Counted from the stretch's first letter, positions 2,749 through 45,573 are shown. The stretch is DNA of 64,000 bases from Ferruginibacter sp. (GCA_019638485.1 JAHBTP010000005.1:23093-87092); one strand, 5' to 3'. Notes: generated from the sequence alone by a model not told the origin. Numbers and translations: made by a program.

Positions 2749-2821
2749 CTAAGTAAAAAGGGATTCCTTGAGCGACAAACAATTTCTGTATTGTGCTATT
2801 GAATACAACAAAAAATAAAAA

Positions 2822-2850: not shown

Positions 2851-2869
2851 TATATAGGAGGTAAGCAAG

Positions 2870-3658: not shown

Positions 3659-3679
3659 ACAGATAATTATCGTCTAACA

Positions 3680-6600
3680 TTATTTATAATGAGGGTTGTC
3701 TCTCATTAATCCATTCCAAACTTTTTTCCTTTGCAACTTTTTAACGAGATACATAATACCAACAAAAATGAAGAAAACGGGGCCGAGGAAGCCTAAAATA
3801 GCTACATATCGGGTGCCATAAAATTTTTCCATCGGTCTTCTCAGTCGCTCAGCAATGAGATACATACTTGGCACCATCATCAGGGTGAGGAAGAAGGCAA
3901 AAATTAACCCATAAATAATAGTCCAACTAAGTGGCCCCCAAAACACCACACTATCACCACCAAAGAAAATATGTGGATTAAGTTTTGTAAACAGTGATTG
4001 GAAATCTATATTGAATCCCACAGCCAGGGGAAGCAGTCCCAACATAGTTGCAATAGCGGTAAGCATAACAGGAATAATTCTGATTTTTCCTGCCTGGATA
4101 GCCGCCTCACGTGTTCGTAGTCCTCTGGCTCTTAATTCATCGGTAAATTCAATAAGTAAAATTCCATTTTTAATTACAATCCCTGCCAGCCCTATAATCC
4201 CTACAAGGAGCATGATTGATGCAATTGTTTTTCCGGTTATAGCATATCCTAACAATACACCAATGATAGAAAAGAAGATTTCTGTAAGTACAATAAAAGG
4301 TTTACTCATAGAATTAAACTGAAGCACTAAGATTAGGAAGATGAGCCCCATAGCAGTAAGAAAAGCGCCCATCAGAAATGAATTTGTTTCTGCTTCCTGT
4401 TCTCCTTGTCCTGTTTGTTTAATGGTAACACCTGTTGGCAAGCGTGTTTTTGCTTTAAAGGCAGCAATCTTATCTCCTAATTCACGATTCACTCTATTAG
4501 TCATAGAAGCATCTAATACATTTGATTGTAATTGAATCATCCGCTTCACATTTTTTCGAGCAATAGCGCCTGATGCAGTAGTATAGTCAATAGAAGCAAT
4601 AGCACTAACCGGCACAGATTTCACCCGCATAGTTGTCATATCCATAAAGGTGATACGCATATTCATTAGGTCGTCAATATTGCTTCTATTATTTTCATTA
4701 TATCGTAATTGGATTTTATATTCATCCTCTCCTATTTTCAACTTACTTACTTCTTTTCCAAACAATGCGGTACGCAATTCCATACCTACTTGTCCGGTAG
4801 AAAGTCCTTCCATCATTGCTCTTTCTCTATCCACCTTAATGGTTATCTCCGGGCTGTTTAAATCTACATCCATAAGCAGATTTTCAACGCCATACACTTC
4901 ATTGGTATCTAAATAATTTGAAAGGCTGCGGGCAACCATAGCAATATCATCAAACTCATCACCACTAATTTCAATATTAACAGGCGGGTCTGTAGGTGGG
5001 CCGCTTTCTTCCTGATCTACTTCTATGCTTGCGCCCGGGATACCTCCCATTACAGCACGGATAGAGTCAATATAAGGGCCTGTTTCTTTTCCTTTTCGTT
5101 TTTCATATTCAACAAATGAAATTTGAATACGGCCAAGATTTGAGCGAACACTTCTATTATTATCACGCGGTTTGGTAGCACTGTTTGCTACATTGGTAAT
5201 CATACTTTCCACAATGGCATCCTTATTTCCAGGCAATTCATTTTTTAGCACTCCGGATACCCGTGTTTCAAGAACATGCATTACACTATCAGTAGCTTTA
5301 ACATCGGTACCTACGGGCATTTTTAAATACACATAAATAATATTAGGGTCTCCCTTAGGAAAAAATGTGGTTTTGTTTCCGCGTAAAAATAAGAGTCCGG
5401 CTGCTATGGGGAATAATAAAAACAACGATACCAATGCCCATACCGGTCTTTTCCCTTTCAATATCCATCGAAGAAGTTGTTCATATTTATTCATTAGGGA
5501 TGGTAATACCCTATCTTGAAAATAGTGAATAATCAGGCGGAATACGTAGCGGTTTAATACAGCCAGGATAACCATAAACAACAGGAAGTTTCCTAATCCC
5601 GGCCAGCCGATGATATTAAAAACCACACCAAGAAAAATGGCCAACCAGAACCACCACTTTCTAAAAAGCATTTTTTTGGGCTCTTCAAACTCTTTCCCTT
5701 CCGGATGCATAAAGCTTACCGCAAAAACCGGATTAAAAATGAATGCTACCACCAATGATGCGGCCAGTGTGAGAATAAGCATTACAGGTAGGTATATCAT
5801 AAACTTACCAATAATACCTTTCCAAAACAGCAATGGGAAAAACGGTGCAAGCGTAGTAGCAGTACCCGCTAACACAGGGATAAAGACTTCTCCTGCTGCA
5901 GCCTTAGCGCTTTTTAAAATGGGAACACGTCCGTTATTAAAAATACGGTGTGTATTTTCAATAACCACGATGGCATCATCAACAATAATACCCAACCCAA
6001 ATAAAAGGGCAAACAGCACAATAAAATTAAGGGTGATATCTGCGCCAATAACCATTTCTCCCAATGGCAGAAACAAAAACGCTACAAAGATGGATAATGG
6101 CACACTCAATGCAACAAAAAATGCATTGGTTACGCCCATAAAAAACATGAGTACAATAAGCACCAGTATAAATCCAATAATGATGGTATTTACTAATTCA
6201 TGAAAGGAGCTGGCAGTAGCACGGCTTTGATCTCCTGTAATAACCACTTTAAGATTAGAGGGTAAATCATCTGCTTGCTGCATATCCTTAACGATATCTT
6301 TAATTTTCTCGGCTGTACTAATCAGATTTTCTCCAGCGCGCTTAACAATGTTTAGGGTGATTACATTTTTTCCATCAAGGCGAGCAAAACTTTCTCTTTC
6401 CTTTATGGTATCTAAAATTTGTGCAACATCACGCAGATAAACGGTAGCTCCTTGTGAACTGCTTTTCACTACAATATTTTGCAGGTCGCTTGCACTTGAA
6501 AACTGTCCTTTAACTTTTACGGTTCGTTTCATTTGCCCTACATCCACTGATCCTCCTGTGATATCATGATTTTCTCTGCTAATGGCATTTTCAATATCAG

Positions 6601-27148: not shown

Positions 27149-27220
27149 GGCCTCGTAGTACAATGGATAGTATAAGAGTTTCCGAAGCTCCAGATCCAGG
27201 TTCGATTCCTGGCGAGGCCA
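27149..27220 (+). tRNA. tRNA-Arg (anticodon CCG)
   Basis: Folded by hand. The acceptor stem GGCCTCG/CGAGGCC has 7 bp and the D stem is GTAC/GTAT. The anticodon loop is TT-CCG-AA, the variable loop is 4 nt, and the T arm is CCAGG-TTCGATT-CCTGG. The discriminator is A and CCA is not encoded. Confidence 0.9.
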
Positions 27221-27605
27221 CTTTACTCCTTCGTATTTTTTTTACTTATAACATTTTATTATAAATATTTAATTATGAAGGCACCCTCATAAGATTTTGA
27301 TTGAAGCTCATTTGGCGCTTAGTTTGATTCCGAATTATCAAAGTTGACGATTTCAATTTCAACACCCATTTGAGCCAATTGATTACGAGAATATATTCAT
27401 TCGAAAAAAATCACAAAACTCCTTAGGCCAGAATATAGCCCTTTTCTTTCCCATTACTAAATACTAATTTCCATCCAATAATACATTTGGGTATTCTTCT
27501 CTAATAATATTTCCATCTATATACTCCGTATTTCTTAAGAATAAAAAAACGAGCCTCCGGCATATAAATATCGAAATAGTTGAGTCTGTTCTTTGTAAAA
27601 CCTGA

Positions 27606-28130
27606 TTAACCGTAATAGTTAGAGTTTCTAATCTTCAAAGTATATATTCCAGTTTTCCCTTCCAAAAATGTTTGAATATTAAGCTGGCTATTTGCAATAT
27701 CGGCTCTAGTTAATTTGTGCGTAGGTTCTCCATATTTAATATACATATACTTATTAAAATCATCGGCCCGAACAATATATCGTTTATTATCTCCTCCTAG
27801 CCAAGTGCCGGAAAAAGAAGAAATAGGTTAGCCACCATAGTTTAAAGCTATGGATTCCCTTAAAGCACAAGCGTTAGAATATCCCGGTTACAAAGCTAAG
27901 TGCCGAGTGTTTAATTCATGGCCAACCATTGCATACACTTCGGTTGGGCTAAGTGAACGATAATTTCCAAAAGACCCTCATTGCGGTCATGCTGCCAATA
28001 CACTAGCAATGGTAGGTAGTGGTTCAGTTAAAATCATTGTAGATGGATCAGTCCAATCAATAATTTCTGCATCTTCATCATTCCCTTCAATTACAGCAAA
28101 AAAGTAGGATTTATATGTCTCTAATAGCAT
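27606..28130 (-). pseudogene. decayed gene of unknown family (single frame, four internal stops)
   Basis: One continuous 175-codon frame (MLLETYKSYFFAVIEGNDEDAEIIDWTDPSTM...GTWLGGDNKRYIVRADDFNKYMYIKYGEPTHKL...) with protein-like composition. It is interrupted by TGA at 27987-27989, TGA at 27978-27980, TAA at 27888-27890 and TAA at 27828-27830. Confidence 0.5.
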
Positions 28131-28145
28131 TGAGTTATTTAATAG

Positions 28146-28717
28146 AAAGCTCAGCGAGTTCCCGCCCTAAAGCAAAATTCGGAATTATGTAAACAGGGAA
28201 CAATACCTCATCACGGTACTTTGTAGGTACTACTCCAAACAGATGGGGAGCTGGCGCTCCCGCCCTAAAGCAAAATTCGGAATTATGTAAACATGGAACA
28301 ATACCTCATCACGGTACTTTGTAGGTACTACTCCAAACAGATGGGGAGCTGGCGCTCCCGCCCTAAAGCAAAATTCGGATTTATGCAAACAGGGAACAAT
28401 ACCTCATCACGGTACTTTGTAGGTACTACTCCAAACAGATGGGGAGCTGGCGCTCCCGCCCTAAAGCAAAATTCGGATTTATGTAAACAGGAAACAATAC
28501 CTCGGCTTGGTACTTTATGGGGGGTATTTCAAAAAGGGGGAAACTGCGTTTCCCACCCCGGTTCAAAGTTCGAATTTTTAAGAACACAAAACAATACCTC
28601 ACTATGGTACTTTGTGGAGTAAATAACCCTTTCGGGCGGGGGCTACGCCCCCACCCCAATTCAAAGTTCGGATTATTTCAAACACGAAACAATACCCAAA
28701 ATTCGGGATTTATGGAG
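28146..28717. repeat. tandem array of six ~98-bp units, each with a GC hairpin plus conserved core
   Basis: Hairpins start at 28148, 28246, 28344, 28442, 28538 and 28638, a period of 96-100 nt. Units 1-3 are nearly identical. Units 4-5 are diverged but keep the core (AAAGTTCGRATT...AAACA.GAAACAATACC..GGTACTTTRT) and a hairpin with a different sequence. Confidence 0.85.
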
Positions 28718-29336
28718 CATAACTATTACGGATACACGAATTTATTTTTTATAGGGTAGAAGAAAATCTTTAATATCCTTCATCTGAATATTTGGAATGT
28801 ACACTTCAAAATGCCCTTATTGTTTTGTCAGGATAATATTTGTCGGTATATTGAATTCTGGTTCATCACAGTGTCTTGTCCTAAAAAAAGTTGACACATT
28901 TTTGTTGTTAATCTTGACACGAATTTACTTTTTTATTTTAATCCTAAATACACTTTACATTTTTTATTTTGGCATTACCGATGAAAGCGGATGCAGCCTC
29001 TGCAGTGGGCAATCTGCAAGGAATTAAATTGGTGTCTGACGAAGTAATTCGTTTATGAAGGCCGTTAGTAATATCCGTTTCCTTCATTGGATTACTTTGG
29101 AAGCCTTTAATACCTAAACAATACCTAACCTACTCCCATTTGCCCCTCTCTTTCCTTTGGTTTTTAATAGTTCTTCCACAAGCATTTTGGTGTGGCTTCA
29201 CCATTGAGGAAACCTATTCAGCATTTGGCGCAAACCGTTTAATAATAAATCCGGGACCAAGTACATTAATGGCATGTGCTAATATGAAAATTGAAACCCT
29301 TTTTTAAAACCCTTAAAAACAACAGACAGCGTTGAA

Positions 29337-29511
29337 AGTATTGGCGCAGTATGGATATTCAAGGCTCATCTGCTGGTACTTCCGTCGAATGCTGAACTAA
29401 TGTACAAGTTTATTTCAAAGGCTGAACAATGAACATTCAGCCCGAAGCCGAGGATGAATAATGAAACTGCTGCTAACGATGGCCTCCTTCAGCCCATATT
29501 GCGCCAATACT
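29337..29511. repeat. palindromic MITE/REP-like element
   Basis: The 18-bp terminal inverted repeat is AGTATTGGCGCAGTATGG (29337-29354) and CCATATTGCGCCAATACT (29494-29511), matching at 17 of 18 positions. It encloses 139 bp of non-coding sequence containing an internal GCTGAA...TTCAGC hairpin. Confidence 0.5.
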
Positions 29512-29582
29512 ATTGTTGGCGGTTCGTGCTTCTGAATTGCCCAAAGAATTATCCGATAATAGGGGGGTATATTAATAAAGAA

Positions 29583-30458
29583 TTAATAAAGAATTACTAA
29601 ACCTCCACAAAAATTTGGAGGGAAACTCGAATTTTCATTTCCAATCCAATTATAATTTTTTCTATCAAAAATTCGGTAAAATGTTTGACTATTTACTTTG
29701 GGAGGATGTGTTTCGTTGTCATAAAATAATCGAATAGGACTATTATAATGATTATTTGACGTTTGTATTTCAGGAGTCTCTTTGCTGATATTTTCATAAA
29801 AGCATTCTACTCCTAAGAATAGAATTTCTTCTGAGGTTATAATATTTTGTTCAGAAATGTCAACAAAGAAACTGGCATTTAAAAAATATTCTTTTTTTAA
29901 GATTATTGGTTTCTCAAGTAGTTCGTCAGATGGCATTCCTTTATCATCAGCTTTATAAATATGAAGCTTACAAATAAGGTTAGGAATTCGTTTGTTTAAT
30001 TTAACAGGAAGAAATACTTTTTCGATTTTATAGGTTTTCTTAATTTGTGTAAGATCAATTTTTATGGCATACTCCATTGACGTAGTAAATACGAGTGTGT
30101 TATGAGTAGAATATTTAAATGTACCGACATTTTGTCTCTCTCTCATTTTTGTGACAACTACTTCTGGGAGCATATTGATTTTCCTTTCAAGAAAAATAGT
30201 ATCTGAATTATGTATAACTACATTTCTTTTACTATACCCCGAATATTCAACCAATAAAGTGTCGAGTTCATTTATTTTAAGATTTACTACACCATAACGA
30301 TTGGAGTGAAATCCTTTATTGCTATTAACTACTTTAATTGTTGCATAAGGCAAAGGAGTTTTGTCCTCTGAGTCCGCTATAAGGATACTTTTATTTTGTG
30401 AAAATGAAATGAGCGTTTGCAAAAGCAAAAATAAGATTAACGGTATTCTTAAATTCAT
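29583..30458 (-). CDS. secreted hypothetical protein with N-terminal carboxypeptidase-regulatory-like (CarbopepD_reg) domain
   Basis: A signal peptide is followed by ILIADSEDKTPLPYATIKVVNSNKGFHSNRYGVVNL, which is typical of that beta-sandwich domain. The remaining ~190 aa are unassigned. The gene is very AT-rich. Confidence 0.55.
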   Translation of the reverse strand: MNLRIPLILFLLLQTLISFSQNKSILIADSEDKTPLPYATIKVVNSNKGFHSNRYGVVNLKINELDTLLVEYSGYSKRNVVIHNSDTIFLERKINMLPEVVVTKMRERQNVGTFKYSTHNTLVFTTSMEYAIKIDLTQIKKTYKIEKVFLPVKLNKRIPNLICKLHIYKADDKGMPSDELLEKPIILKKEYFLNASFFVDISEQNIITSEEILFLGVECFYENISKETPEIQTSNNHYNSPIRLFYDNETHPPKVNSQTFYRIFDRKNYNWIGNENSSFPPNFCGGLVILY

Positions 30459-30521
30459 TTAAGAAGTTTTAAAAGAAAAGGTGCTTACATACAAAGATAA
30501 ACACCTTTTCAAGTAGAAAGA

Positions 30522-31313
30522 TTATTGTTTGGTATAACCACAGCTATGTCTTATCCAAAAAGTATGGCGACAGCAATACTCCCAAGGTGCGGCAATATCA
30601 TATTCACCAGTATAAGCATTGAAAAGATATTTAACCCCCGAACTACACCTTTTTCCAAATCCCCAAGCTGGATGTTCAGGCATATTACCATATGGAGGTT
30701 CAGAATCAATTTCATCATAACTAAAAGGTGTTTCTCGTATAAAACTAAATAAGTCAAAATTATCATCCTCTGGTCGAACTGTCGCAATTCTATTCATAGC
30801 TTCCCGATTAAATTCGCCAATCTTTATTCTTTCGTAATTTTCATTATTCAAGTATTCTGGAAGAATTGTGAGTATGTACCTGAATTCTTCAAGAGTTCTG
30901 AAAATTACACCATCGATTTGAACGATTTGGTCATTGTTTAAAATGTAATCCATATTTTGCTCCTTATCTAATCTTGAGCTTGCATATTCTTCGCCATATT
31001 TTTCCATTCCATCACATGTGAAATCAATTGAATGGAGATATTCTTGGACTTCCGCATGAGTACTGTTATCCAAGAAATCAAGAAAATCCTCAAAAACTTC
31101 ATAATTAGCAAATACTAAGAAGCCATAATTACTTAATGTTAATTGCTCTGGAGCAGGACGACCATACGTAGAAGATTTTGACTTTTCTAGGTGCGCATTT
31201 TCTGTAGCCAAAATCGGAGTTTTCAGAACATCCTTCTTGCTACAACTTAACGCAAGTGTAGTGCATAAAATTAGAGTTATAAGCGAGTTGTTTAATGCAA
31301 TTTTAGTTGTCAT
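30522..31313 (-). CDS. hypothetical lipoprotein
   Basis: Has a lipobox (LALSC) and an acidic central region. The Cys/aromatic-rich tail is CSSGVKYLFNAYTGEYDIAAPWEYCCRHTFWIRHSCGY. I recognised no family. Confidence 0.55.
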   Translation of the reverse strand: MTTKIALNNSLITLILCTTLALSCSKKDVLKTPILATENAHLEKSKSSTYGRPAPEQLTLSNYGFLVFANYEVFEDFLDFLDNSTHAEVQEYLHSIDFTCDGMEKYGEEYASSRLDKEQNMDYILNNDQIVQIDGVIFRTLEEFRYILTILPEYLNNENYERIKIGEFNREAMNRIATVRPEDDNFDLFSFIRETPFSYDEIDSEPPYGNMPEHPAWGFGKRCSSGVKYLFNAYTGEYDIAAPWEYCCRHTFWIRHSCGYTKQ

Positions 31314-31676
31314 TATTTTTGATTTTTAATTTTTTGTATTTAAAGTTCCTCTACAAGTTCCTCAAATGCGATGGTGGTGATCTTTTGTTTTCTTTCATAA
31401 TAGTTATTTTTGAGAACTGCGGTAGCATGACCGCCAACTATATAATTGTTGATGACACCCTCATCTTACACAGGGCCAGGATGGCCACTTTAGCAAAGTT
31501 TGAATGGGTATTGATGAATTAAAAAAATAGGTTTAAAATCTCTTTCAACAGATATTCATCCTTTTAATGAGTAATCTTATTTCATAAATTGAGATTATTT
31601 AAACAATTGATGGCTTTTTTATAACTTTATTCAAATACAGCAGTTTTTGTTTAAAACCGTTACCTTATTTAAGGCT

Positions 31677-34600
31677 ATGAGTAAATTTTATATCATCTTC
31701 CTTGCATTTTTATTTTCCATAAAAATAGCTTTCGGTCAGGTGGTTGTTACAAACCCGGGTAACACCACTCCTAATTTAGCCGCAACTTATACTACGTTGG
31801 CTAATGCAATTTCCGCTTTAAATGGAGTTACAGCAATTACTGGGCCCGTGGTAATTACCTTAAACCCCGGGAATCCGCAAACAACACCAATTGGAGGATA
31901 TTCAATCAATTATTCTGCAACAGCAACCGTTGTAAATAATATACGGATTGATGGGGGCGGAAATACTATCACTGCCTACTCACCGCAAGCCTCCGGAAGT
32001 TATACCGATGCAATTTTTAAAATTATTGGTTCTGACTATTTAACGTTAGAGAATTTTGTATTACAAGAAAATCCACTAAATAATAAAATATCCAATTCCA
32101 CAAATAATATGACTGAGTGGGGTGTTGCCTTACTTGTAAACAATCAGATAAATGGGGCACAACACAACACAATCCGAAATAATACAATTTCATTAGATAA
32201 GACTTATCAAAATACTTTTGGAGTTTATAGCAACACTTCTCATGCCCCCAATAACATTTCGGTTGATAAGCAAGTTTTAAATGGCACAGCAGCTCCCAAC
32301 CACTATAATAAAATATATAGTAATTACATTTCTAATGTAAACATGGGTATAACTATTATCGGAAGTAGTAACCCACAATACATGGATGATGGAAACGACA
32401 TAGGTGGAAGTAGCTCTTCTACGGGAAATACAATTACGAATTTTGGCGGAAAATATGCTACGGCCTCATTCTTCTATAATTCCGGAGTAGTATATGGCAT
32501 CTTTTCAAACCATCAGATAAATGAAAACATCGCCTATAATACCCTCGAGAGTTCTACCCTAACAGGAAGTGGCACAGTACGGGGTATTGTAAAAACATAC
32601 AGCAAATTCAATCCCGATGTTAATGCAACAATTACTTCAACCATTGCACACAACATCATTACTTACGATAATCAATTTACAACCGGAACATTTGAACTAA
32701 TTAGAAGTGAGGCGCAAAATAGTGACCTGCCTAATTTCACGATTAACATTAACAATAACGAGCTTATTAATAACATTGCTCTTAATGTAGTAATAACAGG
32801 TATAATAAATACAGCACGGTATGGAACTTTAAACATTAACTACAACACATTTAAGAATAATATTCTTTCAGCATCATCAGGTACTTTCAGCGGTATTTCC
32901 AATACTGCTTTAATACCCGGCTTAATTAATATTAATAACAATATGTTTGGGGACTTTACAAGTTCTGCATTTAAATTTACAGCAGCTACACCCAGTGGAA
33001 CCATAAATGGAATTACTTGTACAACAACAAACAGTAATTTCTCCATAAGCAATAATAAATTTCGTGGTTTTGTATTTGATAATCCAGGTACAACAGTTAC
33101 AAATTATATTACTTATTTAAATGCTCCCACCACACCTACCAATGGTTTATTAAGCGCTAACACTTTTAAAAGGATTAATATTGAATCTTCAGGGCAAACC
33201 ACATTTATAAACAGGACCGGAGTAATGGGTGCAGGTGCAAATGCCACAGAGACGATTGATAAAAATATTGTTGATACGGTTATAAAAAATAATTCCGCAG
33301 GTAATCTTTATGGATTTTATGGTACCGGTAACTCCACTCCGGGTAATTCTTTTATTATTACCGGAAATAAGTTTCAAAACTGGTCAGGCCAAGCAGTAAA
33401 TGTTTCAGCAATAAATTCTAACGATGGTAGCAATTCCCTCCAGCTTATAAAAGTTGTAAATAACAATACAATCAATAATTGGAATTTTACCGGAACATCT
33501 ATTGTTAGCCCTATAATTATTAAAAATGCCTCTAACACTTCAAAAGCTTCCGGCAATACACTTATAAAGATTATAACAAGTACAAATTTAATAGGTATTA
33601 ACATTAATTCTACCGATGCAACCGGTGAAATAGAATTACTTAATAATATTATTGATACTATAAATTCGGAAGAAGGGTTTACCGGCATCAATGCTACAAC
33701 CACATCAGGTAGTGCTTTTGGATTTACTGTAAAATCAAACAAACTAACTAATATAAATTGCTTGAACCCCACATCCGGTAGTCAAATATCAGGTATATAT
33801 ATCAGTGGGGCAATGGGTGGAATTGTTGAAAAAAACATTTTAGGCAATATCACCGTTTCAGGATCTTCCTTTATTCTTAGCGGGATTCGATTAGCAGCAG
33901 TTTCAGGAGATAGTTATACGGTTCAAAATAATTTGATTGGAAAACTTAATGTAGTTGGCGGAGATGACCCCCGCACCATTCGTGCTATTTATTTAATGGA
34001 TGGCGGAGGTGCTAACAGTACTTATTATCTATATCATAACACGGTGTACCTAGATGCTTCAAATGGAGGGATTAACTTTGGCTCATGTGCCCTTTACTCT
34101 CAGGGTATAAACAATGCCACTTCAAACAAGGTAATTTTACAAAACAATATTTTAATAAATATTTCTGTTGCTAATGGAACAGGAGTAACGGCATCGTATA
34201 TACGAAATGGTGCTTCATTTACCAATTATGATAATGCATCCAATAATAATATATTTTATGCGGGAATACCATCCCCCAGCAATCTAATTTTTTCTAATAC
34301 AACTAATAACGATCAATTATTATCAGCCTTCCAAACTCGCATAGCGCCTGCAGAGTCTGCTTCACAAACTGAATTATCTCCATTCCTTTCTTTAAACCCC
34401 AACGACCCTACCTATCTCCACATAAATCCATTGGTAGTTACCCGTTCTGAAAGTGGAGGAATGGTAATATCTGCAGGAGTAGATACAGATATAGATAATG
34501 ATATTCGACATGGATATCCCGGTTATTCAGGTGCTGGCACAGCTCCAGATATTGGAGCTGATGAATTCAACGGTATAATAACTGAATTTGACGCTCCTGA

Positions 34601-37600
34601 CATTTCTTATACCGTTATCACTACGCCTAATTGTGTTTCGGTAGGAATGACACTAAGTAATGTAACGATTACTGATGCTAGTGGCATTCCTTTATCGGGT
34701 TTAGATGTTCCAAGAATTTATTATCATAAAAATTCAGACCCCTGGTATTCAACAGCAGGAAGTTTTAACTCCGGAACCGCATCTAATAGTGTATGGGCAT
34801 TTTCTATCGTAGAAGCCGATATGGGTGGAGTATCCGGAGGTGATGTAGTGGAATATTTTGTTGTTGCACAAGATATCAGTCCGGCAAAAAATGTTGGATC
34901 TTCACCTGCCGTCGGGCTTATTGCCACTAATGTACATACCATTGTTACACCACCAACGCCAAGCAATTTTTATACTGTTAATTATTCACTAAGCGGAACT
35001 TATACTGTAGGATCCGGTGGAAATTTCTCAACACTTACAGAAGCAATTAATGCCTATAACAATGCCTGTGCATTACTTGCTCCGGTTATTTTTTCTCTTT
35101 TAGATAATGACTATACTACTCCTACAGAAACATTTCCGATTGTTATAAACCAGCATCCAGATGCGAGCGCAACTAAAACACTTACCATTCGCCCTGCGAC
35201 ATCAGCTACTTCAACAATTAAAGGAAATAATAACTCTCAAATTATTTTATACGACGGCGCTGATTATGTCTTTTTTGACGGAAGACAAAACGGTATTGGT
35301 ACTTCACGAAACCTAACTATAAGTAATGAAGGTGTTGGAGTTACTATTCAATTTATTAATGATGCAACAAATAATATTGTACGCTATTCAAATGTTCAGG
35401 GAAGGAGAGCCAGTTCATTTTCAGGAGTGATATTTTTTGGTACTACTTCTATTCCTTCAGGCACAGGAAATAGTAATAATTTAATTGAGTATAATGCCAT
35501 TTCGCCCTCCAATGACTTTCCTACAAATGGTATTTACTCAGGAGGCACAGCCGGTAGCGGAAACGACAATATTGAAATTTCACACAATCTGATTTATGAC
35601 AACTTTAATCCGGCTTCAGATAACCATGGAATTTATGTTAGTGGATTAGGCACTGCAACTAATTGGAATATTCATAACAACAAGCTCTTTCAAACCGCTT
35701 TACGATTATTTGATGGAAGTAATAATCGTTTAGTTTATGGAATAAGAATTACATCAGGCAGCGGACATACAATTAAGGACAACAGTATAGGTTTTGCCAA
35801 TGAAAGTGGAACGGGGTCCACCATGCTGGTTGGCAACAACACCTTAATGCCGGGATTTCCAACAAGCTATACCCTTGCCGGCAGTTCAACCAACTTGCGT
35901 TACATTGGTATTGCAGGAGATTTTGAAAGTGGCCCTAAATCGAACATTGATGGAAATATCATAGGTGGAATAGCTATCTTCTCGGGAGCACCAACTTCCA
36001 TCCCCGGACATTTTACCGGTATTTATATTGAAGGAGGTCCTGTGGATATAGGAAAGATATCCGGAAATACTATTGGTTCTACTACTGACCAATCATCTAT
36101 CTATGTTGCATCTGCATCCTCCTCATATAATGAAGTGATAGGAATCCGCATGGTGCCCGCCCAGAATAGTGAAGTGGCCAACAATATCTTTGGCGGCATT
36201 TTAGTATCCGGAACAACTAATACAACAACGGGAAATTTCACCGGTATAAGTGCAGGTGGATCTGCTCAATATAATATTCATGACAACACTTTTGGCAATA
36301 ATACACCAAACAATATCAGGTTAGGATTTTCTACTTCAGGAGGAAATCTCTCTTCCACAGGAACACTTCAACCAACAGCAGAAACAGTTCCGGGTACTTT
36401 TACAGGAATATTCTGTAACCTCTCGCAAGCAACTCCTGCAGTTCCTTTAACTATAACGGGAAATACTTTTCAAGGATGGGAGGTGTCGCAAAAACTTACA
36501 GAAGTAAAAGCTATTCTTACCCAAAATGTAACGGTGTTTTTTATTACTGCAAATAATACAATAGTAACTGCAAGTAATAATAATGCAGGCTCTTATACCT
36601 CTCCATTTTTAAGATTTACTGAGCCTTCAACCAAGGAGTTGAAGGTTTTTGATATTGCTTCAAACTGCAAAAGTGCTGTAGTGGATAATAACTTTTTTGG
36701 CGAAATTCATTATGCTAAACCTACCATTCAGCCAGGCGCGAAAATGATTGTGGTGAATACCCAAGGAACAAGTGGAAATTTGTGTAGCATTTCAGGCAAT
36801 ACCTTTTATAAACTCAGCCTGCAGGAAGCAGAAGTTAGTTATATAGAACCGGCCTTTAACATGAGCAGCGGATTTACTTTAAATATTTTAAATAATAAAA
36901 CAGAAGACAGTACACAATTAAGTGGAAGGTTTTATGGAGTAAAGATGAATACCAATGCAGTTGCAGGAACGAATGTTCATTTAACCGGAAATAATTTTTC
37001 GAGGATTAAAACAGCAGGCAATACCTTCCTCATCTTCGATCAATTAAAAAGCGGTTTAAATAACTCCCCTAATAGAAGAGTTTTGAATAATAACTTTTCA
37101 AGAATCAATGCAAGTAATGGAATGCTTTCAGGAATATGGGCAGAATATACCGGTAGCACCAGCGCCTCAAATATTGACTCATTTGTAAACAACACCATTA
37201 AAGAACTTACTACTACCAATGGAGATATAAGCGGAATAACTATTAATAAAAATACCAATTCATCATCGGGAGTTGTTATTACACAAAATGAAGTAAGCTA
37301 TCTGAGCAGCTCCGGCCTAAATAGTAATGCAATAGGAATTTCTGCTAATCTACCTTCCACTAATTCTACTTCATTTATTTCTAACAACACTATTTACTCT
37401 ATTCTTACCGGATCCTCTGGCCGCTATAGCACCGGCTTACAAATTGGAAATAGTTCAACAAAGGTTGTTTCTAATGCCAATAAAATATATCAGATAAGTC
37501 ATACAGGAAATCCCGGCTATGTGAGTGGAATTCGTGTAGGCGATACCGGTATTGCATCACTGAATGAAATAAAATTGTATAATAATTTAATTGGAATATT

Positions 37601-40259
37601 ATCTGCCACAAACGCGGGAGACGCTACATTGCCGGTTGTAGTTGGTCTGAATATTTTCAATAATAACGCTGCAGGACAAATAGATGTTGTAAACAACACC
37701 CTATCTTTAAATACCACAGGCACTATTCCAAATTTTTCAACTGCAGGAATTTTTACCACTTCTAATGGGAATATAACTATTGAAAATAACATCGTGGCAA
37801 ATACAAGTGTACCGGGCAGCTCGGGAAAAACAGTTGTCCATTGGCGTAATGGACCCTTTTCAGCAGGTATAACCGGCTTTGCCAACGATTACTATTTAGG
37901 CTCTACTGCTCCTAACATAATGATTGGCTACGATGCAACGAATTCATATATCACATTAGCTGATTATAAAACAAACTTTGGAACCGATGAGCAAAACTCC
38001 GTTTCAGTTGCACCGGTATTTTTAAGTATTATTGGCGCCAACCCTTCATTCTTGCACCTTTCTCCGGTTAGCAATTGTAATCTATTAGGAATTGCAACGA
38101 ATGACCATCATTTATTACCTGCAGACTTTGATGGTGACTTACGCGAAATACCTCCTCCTGCAGGAAGTGTTACCAGCATTGGAGCAGATGAATCATTTAA
38201 AGGAAATGTTTGGACGGGTGCAAGTAATACACAATGGAATAATGCAGCTAATTGGAGTATGGGAACGGTTCCAAACAGCAATACCGAAAACGTGTTTATC
38301 ACCTTACTTCCTCCAGCTAATCAACCTACCATAGCCAGTAATGAAATATTTCAGGTTCAAAGGTTATTTATTTCATCCGGTGCTATACTCAATAATTACG
38401 GCACTCTAAAAATAGCCGGAGGTATTAAAGGGAATTCCGGAAGCATAAATAATATTAACGGCGGGAATGTGGAAGGTTCAATTGAATACAATACATTCTG
38501 TAATGTGCAACAACAAATTGAAGGAAGTATATTTTATGATAACAAAATTAATAACCTAATTATTAGCGGAAACACAGAACTATCTTCAGGCGTGGGTGAA
38601 GAGCTATATATCCATGGTGCATTATCCTTTGGAGCAGTAAGTTCAAAGAATTTTAAAACAAATGATAATATAATTCTAGTATCTAAAGAGAATCAAACGG
38701 CATGGGTAGGGAAAATAACCAATAGTAATAAAATTATCGGAAAAGCAACTATTGAGCGCTATATCAATACCGGGTTAATTGCTGATGGAAGACATATAAA
38801 GTCTTGGCAGTTTTTAGCCACACCAATTACTTCTGGCTCCTCACCTTCAATTTATTCATCATGGCAAGAAAATGGTACCGCGCCAACCGGCTACGGAACT
38901 ATTATAACGGGAACGGGTAGTGGCTTTGATATAACAACAAACGAGCCATCGATGAAGTGGTATGATGGAACACTTGGTGTAAACGGAGAATGGGTGGGCA
39001 TTACAAATACAGCAAGTGCAATTAGCCAACCAAAAGGATATATGGTTTTTGTAAGGGGAGACCGGTCGGTTACTACATACAATGCAGATGCCACGCCAAC
39101 CAATATGCGTATAAAGGGCGAATTATTTCAACCCGGTACACCGCCTCCTACTGTCTCTGTTCCTGCGGCAAAATGGGCATCCGTTGGGAATCCTTATGCC
39201 GCGGCTATTGATGTTGAATACATGAAAGATAATAGCCTGTTTACCAACTTAACTAACGATGTAGTAGTATGGGACCCTTTGCTTGCAGGTTCGTATAATT
39301 TAGGTGGATATCAAACCCTGGCTGCTGCAAATAACTATGAACCTACTGCAGGCGGAACAGCATATTACCCAGCAGCTACTGCATGTAAAGAAATTCAAAG
39401 TGGCCAGGCATTCTTTGTTAAGTCTTCAGGATCTGCAGGACAGGTATCCTTCACCGAAGATTGCAAATTAGATGGAAGCCGGTTAGTTAATCGAGATATT
39501 TTAAATGATGACCGTTGGTTTTTACGCGCCAAGCTATACACCAATGAGCAAATTATATGCGATGGTAATGCTGCGGTGTTTTCAACATCCTATCATAAAG
39601 GGATAGACGAGAATGATGCATCAAAGATGTTTAATAGCGGTGAAAATTTTTCTATTGTAATAGACAATGAGCTGTTTTCCGTAGAAGCACGTTCAACACC
39701 GGTTACGGGAGATACTGTTTATTACAGCTTGAAAAATCTAAAACAACAAGTATATAAAATAGTTTTTTCGCCTCATGGGAGACCATCAAGAAGACTTACA
39801 CCCTTTTTAATTGACCGTTATTTAGGTACATCAACAGCACTGTCATTAGTAGGCAGTACGGAAATACAGTTTAGGATTTCTGCTGACCAAAACTCTAAAC
39901 GCACTGACCGCTTTTATATTGTTTTTAAAGATAGAAACCGACATTCCTCAACTATCCCTATTGGAGAATACACCATTAGTAAAAAACCAATCGAATACCC
40001 AATTAAAATTTCTTTAAAGAACAACCCGATAAGCAATTTTATGCTAAACCTGCGATATGAAGGATTAGCAGGCGGGAATTATCCTTTGGTCATTCTGGAT
40101 ATACAAGGAAGAGAAATATTAAGCACCAAAATATTCAGTACAGGTAAATCTGCACAATGGTGCACCGTTTCTCTTCCTACCTTTTTACCACGAGGCCAAT
40201 ATATCATTCATATACCTACCGATAGAAATAATATAAACTTAAAATTTGTAGTTTGGTAA
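31677..40259 (+). CDS. giant (2860 aa) right-handed beta-helix repeat surface protein with T9SS C-terminal sorting domain
   Basis: The ATG at 31677 gives a signal peptide (MSKFYIIFLAFLFSIKIAFGQ). Hundreds of N/T/G/I-rich ~22-aa beta-helix-like turns follow. Two modules end in GADE (PDIGADEF, SIGADESF). The last ~80 aa (NPISNFMLNL...LDIQGREI...) look like a type A Por/T9SS CTD. Confidence 0.9.
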   Translation: MSKFYIIFLAFLFSIKIAFGQVVVTNPGNTTPNLAATYTTLANAISALNGVTAITGPVVITLNPGNPQTTPIGGYSINYSATATVVNNIRIDGGGNTITAYSPQASGSYTDAIFKIIGSDYLTLENFVLQENPLNNKISNSTNNMTEWGVALLVNNQINGAQHNTIRNNTISLDKTYQNTFGVYSNTSHAPNNISVDKQVLNGTAAPNHYNKIYSNYISNVNMGITIIGSSNPQYMDDGNDIGGSSSSTGNTITNFGGKYATASFFYNSGVVYGIFSNHQINENIAYNTLESSTLTGSGTVRGIVKTYSKFNPDVNATITSTIAHNIITYDNQFTTGTFELIRSEAQNSDLPNFTININNNELINNIALNVVITGIINTARYGTLNINYNTFKNNILSASSGTFSGISNTALIPGLININNNMFGDFTSSAFKFTAATPSGTINGITCTTTNSNFSISNNKFRGFVFDNPGTTVTNYITYLNAPTTPTNGLLSANTFKRINIESSGQTTFINRTGVMGAGANATETIDKNIVDTVIKNNSAGNLYGFYGTGNSTPGNSFIITGNKFQNWSGQAVNVSAINSNDGSNSLQLIKVVNNNTINNWNFTGTSIVSPIIIKNASNTSKASGNTLIKIITSTNLIGININSTDATGEIELLNNIIDTINSEEGFTGINATTTSGSAFGFTVKSNKLTNINCLNPTSGSQISGIYISGAMGGIVEKNILGNITVSGSSFILSGIRLAAVSGDSYTVQNNLIGKLNVVGGDDPRTIRAIYLMDGGGANSTYYLYHNTVYLDASNGGINFGSCALYSQGINNATSNKVILQNNILINISVANGTGVTASYIRNGASFTNYDNASNNNIFYAGIPSPSNLIFSNTTNNDQLLSAFQTRIAPAESASQTELSPFLSLNPNDPTYLHINPLVVTRSESGGMVISAGVDTDIDNDIRHGYPGYSGAGTAPDIGADEFNGIITEFDAPDISYTVITTPNCVSVGMTLSNVTITDASGIPLSGLDVPRIYYHKNSDPWYSTAGSFNSGTASNSVWAFSIVEADMGGVSGGDVVEYFVVAQDISPAKNVGSSPAVGLIATNVHTIVTPPTPSNFYTVNYSLSGTYTVGSGGNFSTLTEAINAYNNACALLAPVIFSLLDNDYTTPTETFPIVINQHPDASATKTLTIRPATSATSTIKGNNNSQIILYDGADYVFFDGRQNGIGTSRNLTISNEGVGVTIQFINDATNNIVRYSNVQGRRASSFSGVIFFGTTSIPSGTGNSNNLIEYNAISPSNDFPTNGIYSGGTAGSGNDNIEISHNLIYDNFNPASDNHGIYVSGLGTATNWNIHNNKLFQTALRLFDGSNNRLVYGIRITSGSGHTIKDNSIGFANESGTGSTMLVGNNTLMPGFPTSYTLAGSSTNLRYIGIAGDFESGPKSNIDGNIIGGIAIFSGAPTSIPGHFTGIYIEGGPVDIGKISGNTIGSTTDQSSIYVASASSSYNEVIGIRMVPAQNSEVANNIFGGILVSGTTNTTTGNFTGISAGGSAQYNIHDNTFGNNTPNNIRLGFSTSGGNLSSTGTLQPTAETVPGTFTGIFCNLSQATPAVPLTITGNTFQGWEVSQKLTEVKAILTQNVTVFFITANNTIVTASNNNAGSYTSPFLRFTEPSTKELKVFDIASNCKSAVVDNNFFGEIHYAKPTIQPGAKMIVVNTQGTSGNLCSISGNTFYKLSLQEAEVSYIEPAFNMSSGFTLNILNNKTEDSTQLSGRFYGVKMNTNAVAGTNVHLTGNNFSRIKTAGNTFLIFDQLKSGLNNSPNRRVLNNNFSRINASNGMLSGIWAEYTGSTSASNIDSFVNNTIKELTTTNGDISGITINKNTNSSSGVVITQNEVSYLSSSGLNSNAIGISANLPSTNSTSFISNNTIYSILTGSSGRYSTGLQIGNSSTKVVSNANKIYQISHTGNPGYVSGIRVGDTGIASLNEIKLYNNLIGILSATNAGDATLPVVVGLNIFNNNAAGQIDVVNNTLSLNTTGTIPNFSTAGIFTTSNGNITIENNIVANTSVPGSSGKTVVHWRNGPFSAGITGFANDYYLGSTAPNIMIGYDATNSYITLADYKTNFGTDEQNSVSVAPVFLSIIGANPSFLHLSPVSNCNLLGIATNDHHLLPADFDGDLREIPPPAGSVTSIGADESFKGNVWTGASNTQWNNAANWSMGTVPNSNTENVFITLLPPANQPTIASNEIFQVQRLFISSGAILNNYGTLKIAGGIKGNSGSINNINGGNVEGSIEYNTFCNVQQQIEGSIFYDNKINNLIISGNTELSSGVGEELYIHGALSFGAVSSKNFKTNDNIILVSKENQTAWVGKITNSNKIIGKATIERYINTGLIADGRHIKSWQFLATPITSGSSPSIYSSWQENGTAPTGYGTIITGTGSGFDITTNEPSMKWYDGTLGVNGEWVGITNTASAISQPKGYMVFVRGDRSVTTYNADATPTNMRIKGELFQPGTPPPTVSVPAAKWASVGNPYAAAIDVEYMKDNSLFTNLTNDVVVWDPLLAGSYNLGGYQTLAAANNYEPTAGGTAYYPAATACKEIQSGQAFFVKSSGSAGQVSFTEDCKLDGSRLVNRDILNDDRWFLRAKLYTNEQIICDGNAAVFSTSYHKGIDENDASKMFNSGENFSIVIDNELFSVEARSTPVTGDTVYYSLKNLKQQVYKIVFSPHGRPSRRLTPFLIDRYLGTSTALSLVGSTEIQFRISADQNSKRTDRFYIVFKDRNRHSSTIPIGEYTISKKPIEYPIKISLKNNPISNFMLNLRYEGLAGGNYPLVILDIQGREILSTKIFSTGKSAQWCTVSLPTFLPRGQYIIHIPTDRNNINLKFVVW

Positions 40260-42418: not shown

Positions 42419-43507
42419 TTATCTTTTAAACACAACGCGCTTGGGGTTAACACCGGAGCCTATAGAAATAACATACTGCTTCACACCTGCCGGATTAAAA
42501 CAAAATACTTCGCCGGGAGACACAAAGTCCTTTGAGTCACAAATGAACACATTACCATTCTCTTCATCAATATCTACAGAATAAACATTTGTTATAACCG
42601 TACCATCCGTAATAAAATTATCCCGAATAACACTATGATTCAACATATCATAAACTTTAATAGGACTGTTACCAAAATTATTAAAGAAAAAAGCGGTATT
42701 TCCAAAGCCCCTAATCTGACTATATTCAAAGCCTGCACCTAATTGAGCGACAACTTGATTTGTATTTGCATCAATAACTGCAGTGAATGCCGGAATCGGA
42801 GTTGTACCATAAATATCACCATAGCCTGTTACTAAAATTTCATGTTGATTACTAATTGCTAAACACTGAGGATTCAATCCAACTGTTACTCTTCGCAATT
42901 CAGAAAGATCACTCAGTTTGATTATAGACACTGTGCTGTCCACATTTGGATAGTTTAGTCCTCCACTATTCGCAACATACAAATAATCATCTGTTGCTAA
43001 AATTTGTTCCGGATTTGAACCCACAGTTATGCTTTGAGTGATGGTTAATGTAGTCGTATCAATAACAGAGACTGTGTTATCATAAGCTGTAACAAAAATC
43101 TTCCCATTTGCTTTAGCTGCGTAACGAGGATTTCGATTAGTAGTGCCATTCATAAATGAAATTCGGCTAATAAAAGAACCATTCATGGCGTTTAGTACAG
43201 TTACATTTCCCGAATTGTTCATTACAATATATAATTTGGAGCCATAAATCAGCATATCATTACCCACATCACCCAAGCCAGCCGTCATGGTTGGGTTTTG
43301 CTGTACAAAAAAATCAGGAAATACAGTACCGGATTCATTATCCCTATAGGCCAATTTTGCATTGTTGCCTCCGAATGCGCCTTCACTCAAAATATAAAGA
43401 CCTTTGGCAGGTTGGATGGGAGAAGGAATTTGAACGTCATTATTCTTGCTACAAGAAACTAATAATACTGTTACAGGCACTAACCAATTCAAGATTTTTC
43501 TTTTCAT
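42419..43507 (-). CDS. YncE/YVTN-type beta-propeller surface lipoprotein
   Basis: Has a lipobox (LLVSC) and repeated propeller blades (LYIVMNNSGNVTVL, IFVTAYDNTVSVID, LYVANSGG). Its ATG overlaps the upstream receptor stop (ATGA at 43504-43507). Confidence 0.75.
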   Translation of the reverse strand: MKRKILNWLVPVTVLLVSCSKNNDVQIPSPIQPAKGLYILSEGAFGGNNAKLAYRDNESGTVFPDFFVQQNPTMTAGLGDVGNDMLIYGSKLYIVMNNSGNVTVLNAMNGSFISRISFMNGTTNRNPRYAAKANGKIFVTAYDNTVSVIDTTTLTITQSITVGSNPEQILATDDYLYVANSGGLNYPNVDSTVSIIKLSDLSELRRVTVGLNPQCLAISNQHEILVTGYGDIYGTTPIPAFTAVIDANTNQVVAQLGAGFEYSQIRGFGNTAFFFNNFGNSPIKVYDMLNHSVIRDNFITDGTVITNVYSVDIDEENGNVFICDSKDFVSPGEVFCFNPAGVKQYVISIGSGVNPKRVVFKR

Positions 43508-45573
43508 TTTTTTGCTTTTTTATTTTCAAGAATTAATCCTATACGCCAATTCGATCCGGGCATAGGGAAGAATTTTACTACTTCGTATGATTTATTAAAA
43601 ATATTATTCCATTCAAATTGTGATTTCACTTTCCATCTTCCTTTACTGCTCCAGGAATAACTGGTATGAATATCACTAAGCACATATCCGGCAATATAAT
43701 TATCTGTGTTTTGAGCACCTTGTCTATAGCGATATCCGGAAAGCAGCATATTATATGCACAGGAAAAGTTTTTTATAACTGCTGCAATTCGTCCGCTTCC
43801 ATTATGCTCGGGGATAAAAGGAATCTGCTTATTGTATGCATAACTCATTCTGTCTGTTTTATCTTTTGCATCCTGAAAGCCATAATTAATAGAAAGGTTT
43901 AATTGTACTTTTTTATTCAATCGCAAATCGGCAAATAGGGCTGCATCAACACCGAGTGTTTGAACCTTTCCAATATTTGCCATTGACCATTGAAATAAAT
44001 TATTACGAGGGAGTGCCACAATTTTATCTTTCACATGCATCAAATAACCATCCACAGTAATCGAAAGCATAGAAACAGCAGGCCCTACATTATTACGTTC
44101 ATAGGTTAACCCAATATCGAATTGATTTGCTAGTTCCGGCTTAAGATTAGCATTACCTACATAAGTATAAAACTGATCATCTAATGATGGCGCGCGAAAT
44201 ATCTCTTTGTAAAATGCACGTACCCTTAGCGGCAAATAACTTAGTGGTTGAAATGAAAAAGATAATGCAGGAGATGGTCTGCTAATATCTCTACCCGCAT
44301 TACCAAAGGCTACGGTTTGAGAGATGTGGGTATATAAAAGATTTCCCAGAAATTCAATACGATGTTTTTTCCAATTAATAAAAGCATTTGACATTATTGT
44401 ATTACGGCGTGGAGATACAAAACCTGTAATAAATGTATCCTTTCGTGAAAGGATATTAAAGAACAAATCGGTGGCAATGCCAGAAGAAAGAGTTTCATTT
44501 ATCTTCCATCCACCGGCAAATGAAAAATAATGCTCTTGTTGAACGAAATCATTTTTAAGATATCCTGCACTATTCGAAAAATCATTATCAATATATACCT
44601 GCCTGTCTATTGAAGACTTCGCAGCTAATTGCAGTTGGATATTTGACAACAAGTTCTTTCTCCATATTAACTGAGCAAAACCGTGTCGGTTATTTAATCT
44701 TTGTGACGACTTAGGGTTATAAAAGATAACTGAGCCCGGTAAGCCACGATTTGATTGGTAATAAAAGGTTTTTATCAATAGTGTGCTGCTATCCCTTAAC
44801 ATTACCGGTAAATCAGATTCAATTTTCCATTGTTTAATATCAGCATTAGAGCGATACTGCAGGGTATCATTATGTTCATAGCCCTTAAAGGAATAATTAC
44901 CATCTGCCTGTTGGTAAAATCCATTAAGCAACCAACTCACCCGATTATTTAATTTTGAACGCATAAACAGCGTGGGACTAATTGAGCCAAATGATGCTCC
45001 TGATAACTTAATTAATACCTCATCAGGTTCATCCTTCTTTGTTGCATAAGAATTAATGGCTAATACAGCAACTTGTGAAAAGGCTCGTGCGGGTTGAAGC
45101 CAGGGCGATGGTGCCGATTGATATAGGCTGATATCCTTAACATTGTCCATTGAAATTCTTCCCAAATCAATTTGACCCGCTCGTGCATCCGCCATTATAA
45201 TTCCATCATACAAAACTCCGGTATGTTGTGCTCCCAAGCTGCGAACAGAAATTGTTTTAAGCCCTCCAATGCCACCATAGTCTTTCACCATTACACCTGA
45301 GAAAAACTTTACGGCATCAGCAACTGATACACTATTTAAGGTTTGTAATTCTTTTTCACTCAGCCTTTGAACAGCCACAGGTGAGGCACTTTCTGAAGAT
45401 GTGTTATGAACAACTACCGGCTTTAACGTGTCTATATTTTGAGCAATAACAAATTTGTCTTGACAAAGTGCAAGAATAAGCAACCACAGATATCGTAAAA
45501 AATATTTCAAACCAAATGGTTTAAAAGCCCACGAGGGAAAAGAAGGGTTGATAAATGCCAAAATCAATGACAC
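43504..45573 (-). CDS. TonB-dependent receptor, BtuB-like by context
   Basis: Has a plug domain (ISVRSLGAQHTGVLYDGI) and barrel motifs. It is the first gene after a cobalamin riboswitch. The start is uncertain: GTG at 45573, or TTG at 45510 giving MKYFLRYLWLLILALC. Confidence 0.85.
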   Translation of the reverse strand: MSLILAFINPSFPSWAFKPFGLKYFLRYLWLLILALCQDKFVIAQNIDTLKPVVVHNTSSESASPVAVQRLSEKELQTLNSVSVADAVKFFSGVMVKDYGGIGGLKTISVRSLGAQHTGVLYDGIIMADARAGQIDLGRISMDNVKDISLYQSAPSPWLQPARAFSQVAVLAINSYATKKDEPDEVLIKLSGASFGSISPTLFMRSKLNNRVSWLLNGFYQQADGNYSFKGYEHNDTLQYRSNADIKQWKIESDLPVMLRDSSTLLIKTFYYQSNRGLPGSVIFYNPKSSQRLNNRHGFAQLIWRKNLLSNIQLQLAAKSSIDRQVYIDNDFSNSAGYLKNDFVQQEHYFSFAGGWKINETLSSGIATDLFFNILSRKDTFITGFVSPRRNTIMSNAFINWKKHRIEFLGNLLYTHISQTVAFGNAGRDISRPSPALSFSFQPLSYLPLRVRAFYKEIFRAPSLDDQFYTYVGNANLKPELANQFDIGLTYERNNVGPAVSMLSITVDGYLMHVKDKIVALPRNNLFQWSMANIGKVQTLGVDAALFADLRLNKKVQLNLSINYGFQDAKDKTDRMSYAYNKQIPFIPEHNGSGRIAAVIKNFSCAYNMLLSGYRYRQGAQNTDNYIAGYVLSDIHTSYSWSSKGRWKVKSQFEWNNIFNKSYEVVKFFPMPGSNWRIGLILENKKAKK

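Follow-up and report, generated by a model that had tools for sequence, protein, structure and literature searches.

In Proteobacteria and Firmicutes, much work has gone into mosaic intergenic repeats, among them the REP/BIME, BOX and Correia elements; in Bacteroidota, to our knowledge, such repeats have hardly been described, and we know of none for Chitinophagaceae. The REP/BIMEs of Enterobacteria and Pseudomonas have RAYT (Y1) transposases, and Nostoc carries NsiR1, a tandem array of small-RNA genes. Here, we consider a stretch of 64,000 nucleotides from Ferruginibacter sp. (GCA_019638485.1 JAHBTP010000005.1:23093-87092; hereafter, the window), in which six tandem ~98-bp units, each bearing a GC-rich palindrome, form an array that is probably one locus of a lineage-specific, multi-copy, dispersed and non-coding family of modular DNA repeats. 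Of the described systems, the BOX element of Streptococcus pneumoniae has the composite structure boxA-(boxB)n-boxC (Croucher et al. 2011, PMC3049150), and the Correia/NEMIS elements of Neisseria are single units with 26-bp inverted repeats and a TA duplication (PMC3049150). Two further systems come from Bacteroidota: the MITE of Porphyromonas gingivalis has terminal inverted repeats and an internal 23-bp minisatellite (PMC4596501), and rAID-1 of Bacteroidales combines a 5' XerD-like recombinase with co-directional immunity genes and repeats between the open reading frames (ORFs) (bioRxiv 10.1101/471110).

The six units of the window, 97-98 bp each, lie head to tail across 28146-28732, with the palindrome at the same place in each. 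Tandem Repeats Finder recovers the near-identical part (28160-28503; period 98, 3.5 copies, 97% matches), a repeat search of the window returns all six copies at spacings of 98, 98, 98, 97 and 98, and a six-unit alignment has a mean column identity of 81% with 38 invariant columns, clustered in ..CAAA.TTCG.A.T..T...AACA...AACAATACC..; all three bear out the ~98-bp tandem array described in the initial annotation. On the plus strand, the left edge is formed by u0 (28146-28243), an internal-type module in which the left arm of the hairpin has been lost (AGCTC-agc-GAGTT), and this degenerate stem is the weaker hairpin that had been placed at 28148. The next three modules, u1-u3 (28244-28341, 28342-28439 and 28440-28536), are internal modules with the stem GGGAGC-tggc-GCTCCC; they are 97-100% identical to one another, which indicates a recent tandem duplication, and this copying of internal modules can be seen directly in the window. 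Module u4 (28537-28634) is also internal, with the stem GGGAAAC-tgc-GTTTCCC, which on the minus strand is followed by CCTTTTTGAA, and u5 (28635-28740) is terminal, with the stem GGGGGC-tac-GCCCCC, a variant core (AACAATACCC-aaaattc-GGGATTTATGG) and the family end motif TATGGAGCATAACTATTACGGATACACGAA. The array closes with a tail of subfamily b (28741-28867), which recurs behind the terminal module at three other loci (L008, L009 and L019), or which may alternatively belong to the margin of a neighbouring gene block that was duplicated. Five of the palindromes are perfect (28246-28261, 28344-28359, 28442-28457, 28538-28554 and 28638-28652) and begin exactly where, and with the stems with which, they had been annotated; the C-run reported after every stem is likewise present. 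Directly downstream of the tail lies an AT-rich 31-bp tandem repeat (28896-28970; 2.5 copies, 76% matches), and a second copy of ACACGAATTTAyTTTTTT is found at 28917-28933.

Two other interpretations of the units were tried and rejected. A small peptide encoded by each unit is not tenable, as the 15-codon ORF of u1-u3 has no ATG in u4; indeed, only spurious ORFs cross the modules, in keeping with the earlier argument that a period not divisible by three precludes a repeat protein. Nor is this a CRISPR array: there are no unique spacers, and entire units are repeated, u1-u3 being 97-100% identical over their full length.

The family extends well beyond this locus. An exact pattern for the invariant core, scanned against one genome per species (185,579 species), matched 19 stretches, 18 of them in one uncultured Ferruginibacter metagenome-assembled genome (MAG; CAZBBO01) and the other a chance match elsewhere; many of the 18 are found where a contig ends, and in many the matches come in twos or threes, ~100 bp apart. 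A profile of the window units (nhmmer) finds ~94 modules in the MAG stretches, and a covariance model (cmsearch) finds at least 88 in the same 18, in arrays of 1-11, so that the other copies of the 98-bp unit, for which a search of relatives had been suggested, do exist in this sister MAG. At each locus all modules are on one strand, 93 of 93 being head to tail and never inverted. Judged by the identity of the shared proteins (99-100% for MarC, 99% for the response regulator, 92% for the histidine kinase and 93% for a 2870-aa protein), the MAG belongs to a close relative of the window organism, which is itself found in wastewater and activated-sludge metagenomes. In four DNA metagenome runs, the depth over the terminal module was 282-4253 compared with 11-104 over the flanks, and, by this ratio, a genome of the window's own population carries the terminal module in ~20-40 copies.

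Outside this lineage, the searches returned no members. Plasmid and phage collections gave no family match; on viral contigs, one pattern had a single match and nothing similar to the module, and a second had 39 matches, all of them in conserved sequence of phages that nhmmer did not relate to the module. Among JGI metagenome contigs, a 20-base degenerate core gave four single matches and no family members, and three of the four correspond to the same promoter-like site, which belongs to an unrelated Bacteroidota genome with 52% GC. At that site (L021 1040-1130, and also in L022 and L023), a single core-like sequence, CAAAGTTCGG..AACAATACCCAATTCAGGTGATTTTGAGCA, lacking a palindrome, precedes the ATG of a small protein by ~30 nt and is divergent from recJ, which is a promoter position; the C-terminus of the small protein resembles a type IX secretion sorting domain.

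Each module of ~98 bp comprises a conserved core of ~60 bp, ..TTCAAAGTTCGGATT..AAACA..AACAATACC-N7-GGTACTTTRTGG, and when modules are aligned on AACAATACC they differ mainly in the preceding 16-25 nt, a stretch nearly always taken up by one of a few interchangeable kinds of perfect GC palindrome. These palindromes span 16-23 nt, and at least six stem types can be distinguished: types 1 to 3, CGGGGACGC-taccc-GCGTCCCCG, GGGGTCAGCG-tcc-CGCTGACCCC and the half-decayed CCCGGGCCGGTATCCCGCTGACCC, start an element; types 4 and 5, GGGAAC-tggc-GTTCCC and GGGAAAC-tgc-GTTTCCC, are internal; and type 6, GGGGGC-tac/tgc-GCCCCC, is terminal. The GGGAGC/GCTCCC stem of the window differs from GGGAAC/GTTCCC by the compensatory swap of one pair. 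A complete element consists of a start module (with a 9-10-bp stem), from 0 to n internal modules (GGGAAC/GGGAGC, then GGGAAAC), a terminal module and a tail; the terminal GGGGGC module has a variant core that ends in TATGGAGCATAAC..ACACGAA (motif TATGGAGCATAAC-nnTTAnGGATACACGAA), and the tails fall into three subfamilies. The order start, GGGAAC, GGGAAAC, GGGGGC plus TATGGAGCATAAC is repeated across 19 loci, and the long arrays (L006, L012, L016 and L019) are several elements in series. The window array, with one truncated and three intact GGGAGC modules, one GGGAAAC module, one GGGGGC terminal module and tail b, agrees with this fixed order, except that the start module, present in the sister genome, is missing. 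A separate tandem array at L012 1720-2100 consists of ~6 units of ~61 bp (TAACGGTTATGCATAAACAAATGCAATT..TTTATTCCTTTCAACT) resembling the family end motif (TAAC..TTATGCATAAACGAA), which indicates that the right end of the element also amplifies in tandem.

The arrays turn over between closely related genomes. Locus L008 is syntenic to the window, with a histidine kinase, a response regulator, MarC and tRNA-Arg followed by the array, and here there are four modules (start, GGGAAC, GGGAAAC and terminal) as opposed to six, and one GGGAAC/GTTCCC module as opposed to 3.5 near-identical GGGAGC modules. The element is missing at two syntenic sites in relatives that are 7-13% diverged. In a sister species (MarC 87% identical), MarC, tRNA-Arg, 240 bp and the large protein gene follow one another with no modules, marking window 27222-31640 as a lineage-specific islet. 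At the fmt locus (L015 vs L073), the MAG has an insertion of 1,031 bp with two modules and tail c, and a contig 92-93% identical to the MAG at this locus has a 35-bp spacer and no module. The near-identical contig L075 has four modules against the six of the window, although this difference is indistinguishable from short-read collapse.

How does this family compare with those already described? It resembles BOX in its composite make-up as an intergenic repeat, with end modules that differ between 5' and 3' and tandem internal modules that vary in number (between strains for BOX, between the window and L008 here), in being dispersed and multi-copy (~100 copies for BOX) with clustered and adjacent elements, and in the stem-loops predicted if it is transcribed. 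However, the two are unrelated in sequence and come from different phyla; moreover, all modules here are paralogues of one 98-bp unit that differ mainly in the palindrome, there are several ordered internal types, terminal inverted repeats are absent, and the only target-duplication-like repeat is imperfect (10-12 bp). With REP/BIME the family shares short GC-rich extragenic palindromes in high copy number, compensatory stem changes, mosaic clusters with conserved linkers, a location mostly between convergent or co-directional genes, and proposed roles as terminator or mRNA stabilizer. Of the hypotheses put forward in the initial annotation, a REP/BIME-like element came closest, as these are indeed dispersed multi-copy intergenic palindromes, but the family is not a member: its modules are exclusively head to tail, whereas the palindromes of BIMEs and REPINs alternate in orientation, it is the 60-bp linker that is conserved and the palindrome that varies, and no RAYT-type gene was seen among the window ORFs of 255-481 aa or in the flanks. 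Correia elements are likewise small dispersed intergenic repeats with possible promoter- or terminator-like signals that affect neighbouring genes, but they do not form ordered tandem arrays of paralogous modules. The P. gingivalis MITE is, similarly, a dispersed non-coding element of Bacteroidota that contains a variable tandem-repeat region, albeit one with terminal inverted repeats and without ordered hairpin modules. The likeness to NsiR1 lies in the ~100-bp head-to-tail repeats and in the combination, within every repeat and on one strand, of a promoter-like box with a terminator-like stem; in contrast, the stem here follows the box immediately, and the repeats are dispersed at 20-40 sites rather than confined to one locus. 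On balance, we think it likely that this is a new mosaic intergenic repeat family, similar to BOX and BIMEs in behaviour, but belonging to neither: it is ordinary in kind, as a selfish or structural intergenic repeat, new as a family, and unusually orderly in its module structure.

The hairpin was described in the initial annotation as covarying in sequence, and this is upheld by the larger sample. In a covariance-model alignment of 93 modules, which is fitted to the structure and composed of related sequences, 83% of stem cells pair (65% in shuffles) and 106 are changed on both sides (41 +/- 5 in shuffles); the covariation score of 0.431, against 0.192 for shuffles, was reached by none of 500 shuffles, and controls in which the partner was slid by 1-3 columns scored 0.03-0.19. 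The stems are essentially Watson-Crick, the exceptions (18 G.U-type and 25 A.C-type cells) having no strand bias, and the fold z-scores of the array are equal for the two strands (-3.8 and -3.7). Additionally, in one GGGAAAC palindrome of L019 (module ~3714-3811), the stem is unchanged but the loop is inverted and reads gca in place of tgc, which is what would be expected of a palindrome acting as DNA and is the mark of one that was flipped or re-templated. Taken together, the absence of a G.U/A.C bias, the equal folding of both strands and the flipped loop give no sign of an RNA made from one strand, and a DNA-level palindrome fits the symmetry of the stems as well as RNA does. The earlier deduction that compensatory stems reflect selection on structure is, therefore, reasonable, but the compensatory stems should not be taken as proof of a structured RNA. 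A second helix in the core, ACAATACC-N7-GGTACTTT, fared differently: none of 534 cells is changed on both sides and pairing equals that of shuffles, and the region is conserved as sequence, in the form of an imperfect inverted repeat of 8 + 7 + 8 nt. Rfam 15, searched at the gathering threshold and at E up to 10, gave only noise and no family.

The most concrete activity predicted for the hairpin is termination on the minus strand. A terminator scan scores the minus-strand stems of units 1-4 as terminator-like, with the tails CATCTGTTTG and CCTTTTTGAA, and finds eight terminator-like sites in the region where 1.9 are expected, although the tails of the GGGAGC stems (CATCTGTTTG) are weak. Family-wide, all 19 GGGAAAC stems and 13 of the 15 GGGAAC/GGGAGC stems have a T-rich tail on the minus strand, a feature that neither start nor terminal stems possess and that is not seen for any stem on the plus strand. 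The statement in the initial annotation that no U-tract follows the stems on either strand must, consequently, be withdrawn, as such tails stand behind four of the six window stems on the minus strand. The core, too, contains a candidate signal. The consensus for sigma-A promoters in Bacteroidota is TTG and TAnnTTTG at -12 to -5 (PMC9723704), and the pattern TTG-N20-GAAyTTTG, a one-mismatch version thereof, occurs on the minus strand once per module (28203-28173, 28301-28271, 28399-28369, 28497-28467, 28594-28564 and 28692-28662), in each case ending ~10 nt before the palindrome; being matches to a relaxed consensus, these make a promoter in the core a lead rather than a finding. The contigs obtained from four runs of RNA, or possibly RNA, are sparse and unstranded, over the array just as over its neighbours; two metatranscriptomes from a study that holds the genome yielded, over the 20 kb examined, only a tRNA contig of another organism, and the MAG arrays are present in no public RNA run. 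On the earlier hypothesis of tandem small RNAs, the evidence is neutral, speaking neither for nor against it.

As reconstructed from sequence comparison, the mode of spread would be that of selfish or neutral DNA which lands in intergenic spacers and whose arrays subsequently grow or shrink through unequal recombination or slippage among the modules. The palindromes would be retained because the hairpin is needed, presumably as a recognition structure for a putative mobilizing enzyme, as an intrinsic terminator or RNA-stabilizing stem on the minus strand, or as both; in the window, the array would halt the transcripts of two minus-strand genes (29583-31313) before they run antisense into tRNA-Arg. 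A number of observations weigh against this account. In three canonical elements, no shared terminal inverted repeat links the start module with either the terminal module or the tail. The fmt insertion is flanked by a direct repeat of 10-12 bp that is imperfect, only about half of the 1,031 bp is repeated element, and it provides the sole target-duplication-like repeat seen, from one filled/empty pair. Pfam scans found no recombinase, transposase or RAYT among 20 window ORFs of 255-481 aa, a range that includes the usual sizes of recombinases and lies above that of RAYTs (<255 aa), and no gene recurs within ~4 kb of the 19 arrays other than a paralogous DUF6705/toxin-like block in L008, L009 and L019; the linked tyrosine recombinase that had been raised as a possible partner of the array was, thus, sought in vain in both places. 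Some modules have a decayed or lost palindrome, such that the hairpin is not always maintained, and the core, in particular GGTATTGTT on the minus strand, is conserved more than the stems, which suggests a sequence-specific function, for example protein binding or a promoter, that a selfish repeat kept for its hairpin does not explain.

An alternative is that every module acts as a transcription unit of the minus strand or as a mobile promoter, with the sigma-A promoter TTG-N20-GAAyTTTG as its core. Transcripts would start at the G-run of the palindrome and either end at the next T-tailed stem, to give ~100-nt tandem small RNAs, or read into a flanking gene, which in the window would be a Tae4-like gene whose ATG lies 16 nt beyond u0, the only module with its stem destroyed. 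The relaxed pattern is found in all six modules, and on the minus strand only; its -7 box is positioned as described for Bacteroidota (PMC9723704), TTG and A..TTT are among the best-conserved columns of the core, the strict pattern marks plausible promoters elsewhere in the window (upstream of a cobalamin riboswitch and of the 2870-aa gene), the core-like sequence of L021-L023 precedes an ATG by 30 nt on the matching strand, and u0 adjoins the Tae4-like ATG in both the window and L075. However, since all copies descend from one ancestor, the six matches amount to a single ancestral motif, and the relaxed pattern by itself occurs ~28 times per 128 kb, a chance of ~4% per unit. Moreover, the first base of the -7 box is G rather than T, conservation reaches well past the two boxes, and a terminator-like stem within ~10 nt predicts RNAs of ~30 nt; the flanking genes have no preferred orientation (~5 face away from the array and 7 face it), the stems have no strand asymmetry, and the RNA runs are sparse and unstranded. 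We, therefore, regard this explanation as unlikely. The inverted repeat of the core invites another, in that AAAGTACC-N7-GGTATTGT is laid out like the core site of a tyrosine recombinase (8-9-bp arms and a 7-8-bp spacer), and stacks of such sites might exchange strain-variable toxin/immunity cassettes at a tRNA-adjacent islet in the manner of an integron or rAID.

This recombination-site model would account for an inverted repeat that is conserved as sequence without covariation, as a protein-binding site would be, and for cargo that differs by genome: a Tae4-like effector and a 65-aa lipoprotein in the window and L075, a toxin-like C-terminal ORF and DUF6705 in L008, L009 and L074, and no islet in the sister species. 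Repeated non-coding sequence in a low-GC accessory islet, here near effector/immunity remnants and a tRNA, is indeed reminiscent of attC sites and rAID-1. The resemblance ends there, however: no integrase or XerD-like recombinase was found among the scanned window ORFs or beside any of the 19 loci, there are no ORFs between the repeats, most arrays lie at housekeeping intergenic sites without toxin or immunity genes, the spacer of the inverted repeat varies among neighbouring modules, and the short perfect palindromes differ from the imperfect, bulged hairpins of attC. The defining features of rAID-1 are all absent (bioRxiv 10.1101/471110). Recombination sites are, consequently, very unlikely, and the integron- or rAID-like cassette array suggested in the initial annotation is not supported, on the same grounds, namely, the lack of cassettes between modules, the lack of a tyrosine recombinase among the scanned ORFs, and the housekeeping neighbours. 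A broader version, which gives the modules a function for the host as cassettes that propagate themselves and carry a promoter and terminator or a recombinase site, seems to us improbable; if true, they could be unidirectional insulator stacks that donate an outward promoter, or tRNA-adjacent landing pads that swap strain-variable effector/immunity genes, and would represent a repeat-based wiring or shuffling of accessory genes in Chitinophagaceae with no described counterpart. Finally, the tandem copies and hairpins might not be genuine, but an artefact of assembly or chance, given that short-read assemblies break or collapse here (L075 having four modules and not six) and that many MAG contigs end within arrays. 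Against this, the flanks and the variants of the modules can be recovered from independent DNA runs of several studies, another genome contains ~88 homologous modules, and the repeat and covariation statistics are far from chance; the uncertainty is limited to the exact copy number of u1-u3, and we consider an artefact scarcely credible.

The array-bearing islet of the window (27222-31640) lies between a plus-strand tRNA-Arg(CCG) (27149-27221), which substantiates the tRNA-adjacent position previously noted, and the gene for the 2870-aa repeat-rich protein (31647-40259). On the tRNA side of the array, a decayed gene for a Tae4-like amidase effector (27606-28130, minus strand; PF14113, E 2e-14) has four in-frame stops and a truncated C-terminus; a word search with the read-through pseudogene gave no homologues. 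A 387-bp deletion at 27615 removed the C-terminus together with a downstream gene for the 65-aa lipoprotein, which is likely an immunity gene, and both survive in the 99%-identical contig L075 (Tae4-like gene at 3256-4080); the sister MAG lacks the entire pair. On the other side, 29211-29330 is what is left, over 120 bp and at 93% identity, of a gene for an NlpE/META-domain lipoprotein, a gene that is intact in the MAG between the array and the large protein gene (L011 678-1472); decayed genes, thus, flank the array on both sides, as had been reported. Another MAG array directly follows a 39%-identical paralogue of the C-terminus of the 2870-aa protein (L016 3-1556). Further along the window, a cobalamin riboswitch (RF00174; 45606-45805, minus strand, 87 bits) is preceded by a strict TTG-N21-TAnnTTTG match at 45828-45797, and is itself upstream of a 689-aa ORF (43504-45573) and a DUF5074 gene.

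Across the family, the array sites are intergenic (five convergent, three tandem and two divergent), with no bias seen in the orientation of the genes around them; most lie between housekeeping genes, such as fmt, ligA, selD and tyrS, and the modules abut, with no ORFs between them. At L008 1-2211, L009 1-1678 and L074 5496-7537, a C-terminal ORF of ~250 aa, open at the locus edge, converges on the array tail; the copies are 40% identical, small lipoprotein/DUF6705 genes come next, and the whole resembles cassettes of polymorphic-toxin and immunity genes, present as duplicates at three or more sites next to arrays. Four arrays are within ~1.2 kb of a tRNA gene: tRNA-Phe (L004 6795-6868), tRNA-Arg (L008 3584-3656), tRNA-Pro (L014 846-920) and the tRNA-Arg of the window. 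By a rough estimate, this proximity exceeds that of random intergenic positions, perhaps because tRNA-adjacent DNA collects accessory sequence.

Chitinophagaceae are abundant in activated sludge, and a family that turns over between genomes less than 10% diverged offers a marker for strain typing in this lineage and explains where its short-read MAG contigs break. It is also a tractable case in which palindromes are swapped while the linker remains constant. Moreover, if the minus-strand promoter and terminator signals were to prove true, the modules would be portable regulatory parts for Bacteroidota.

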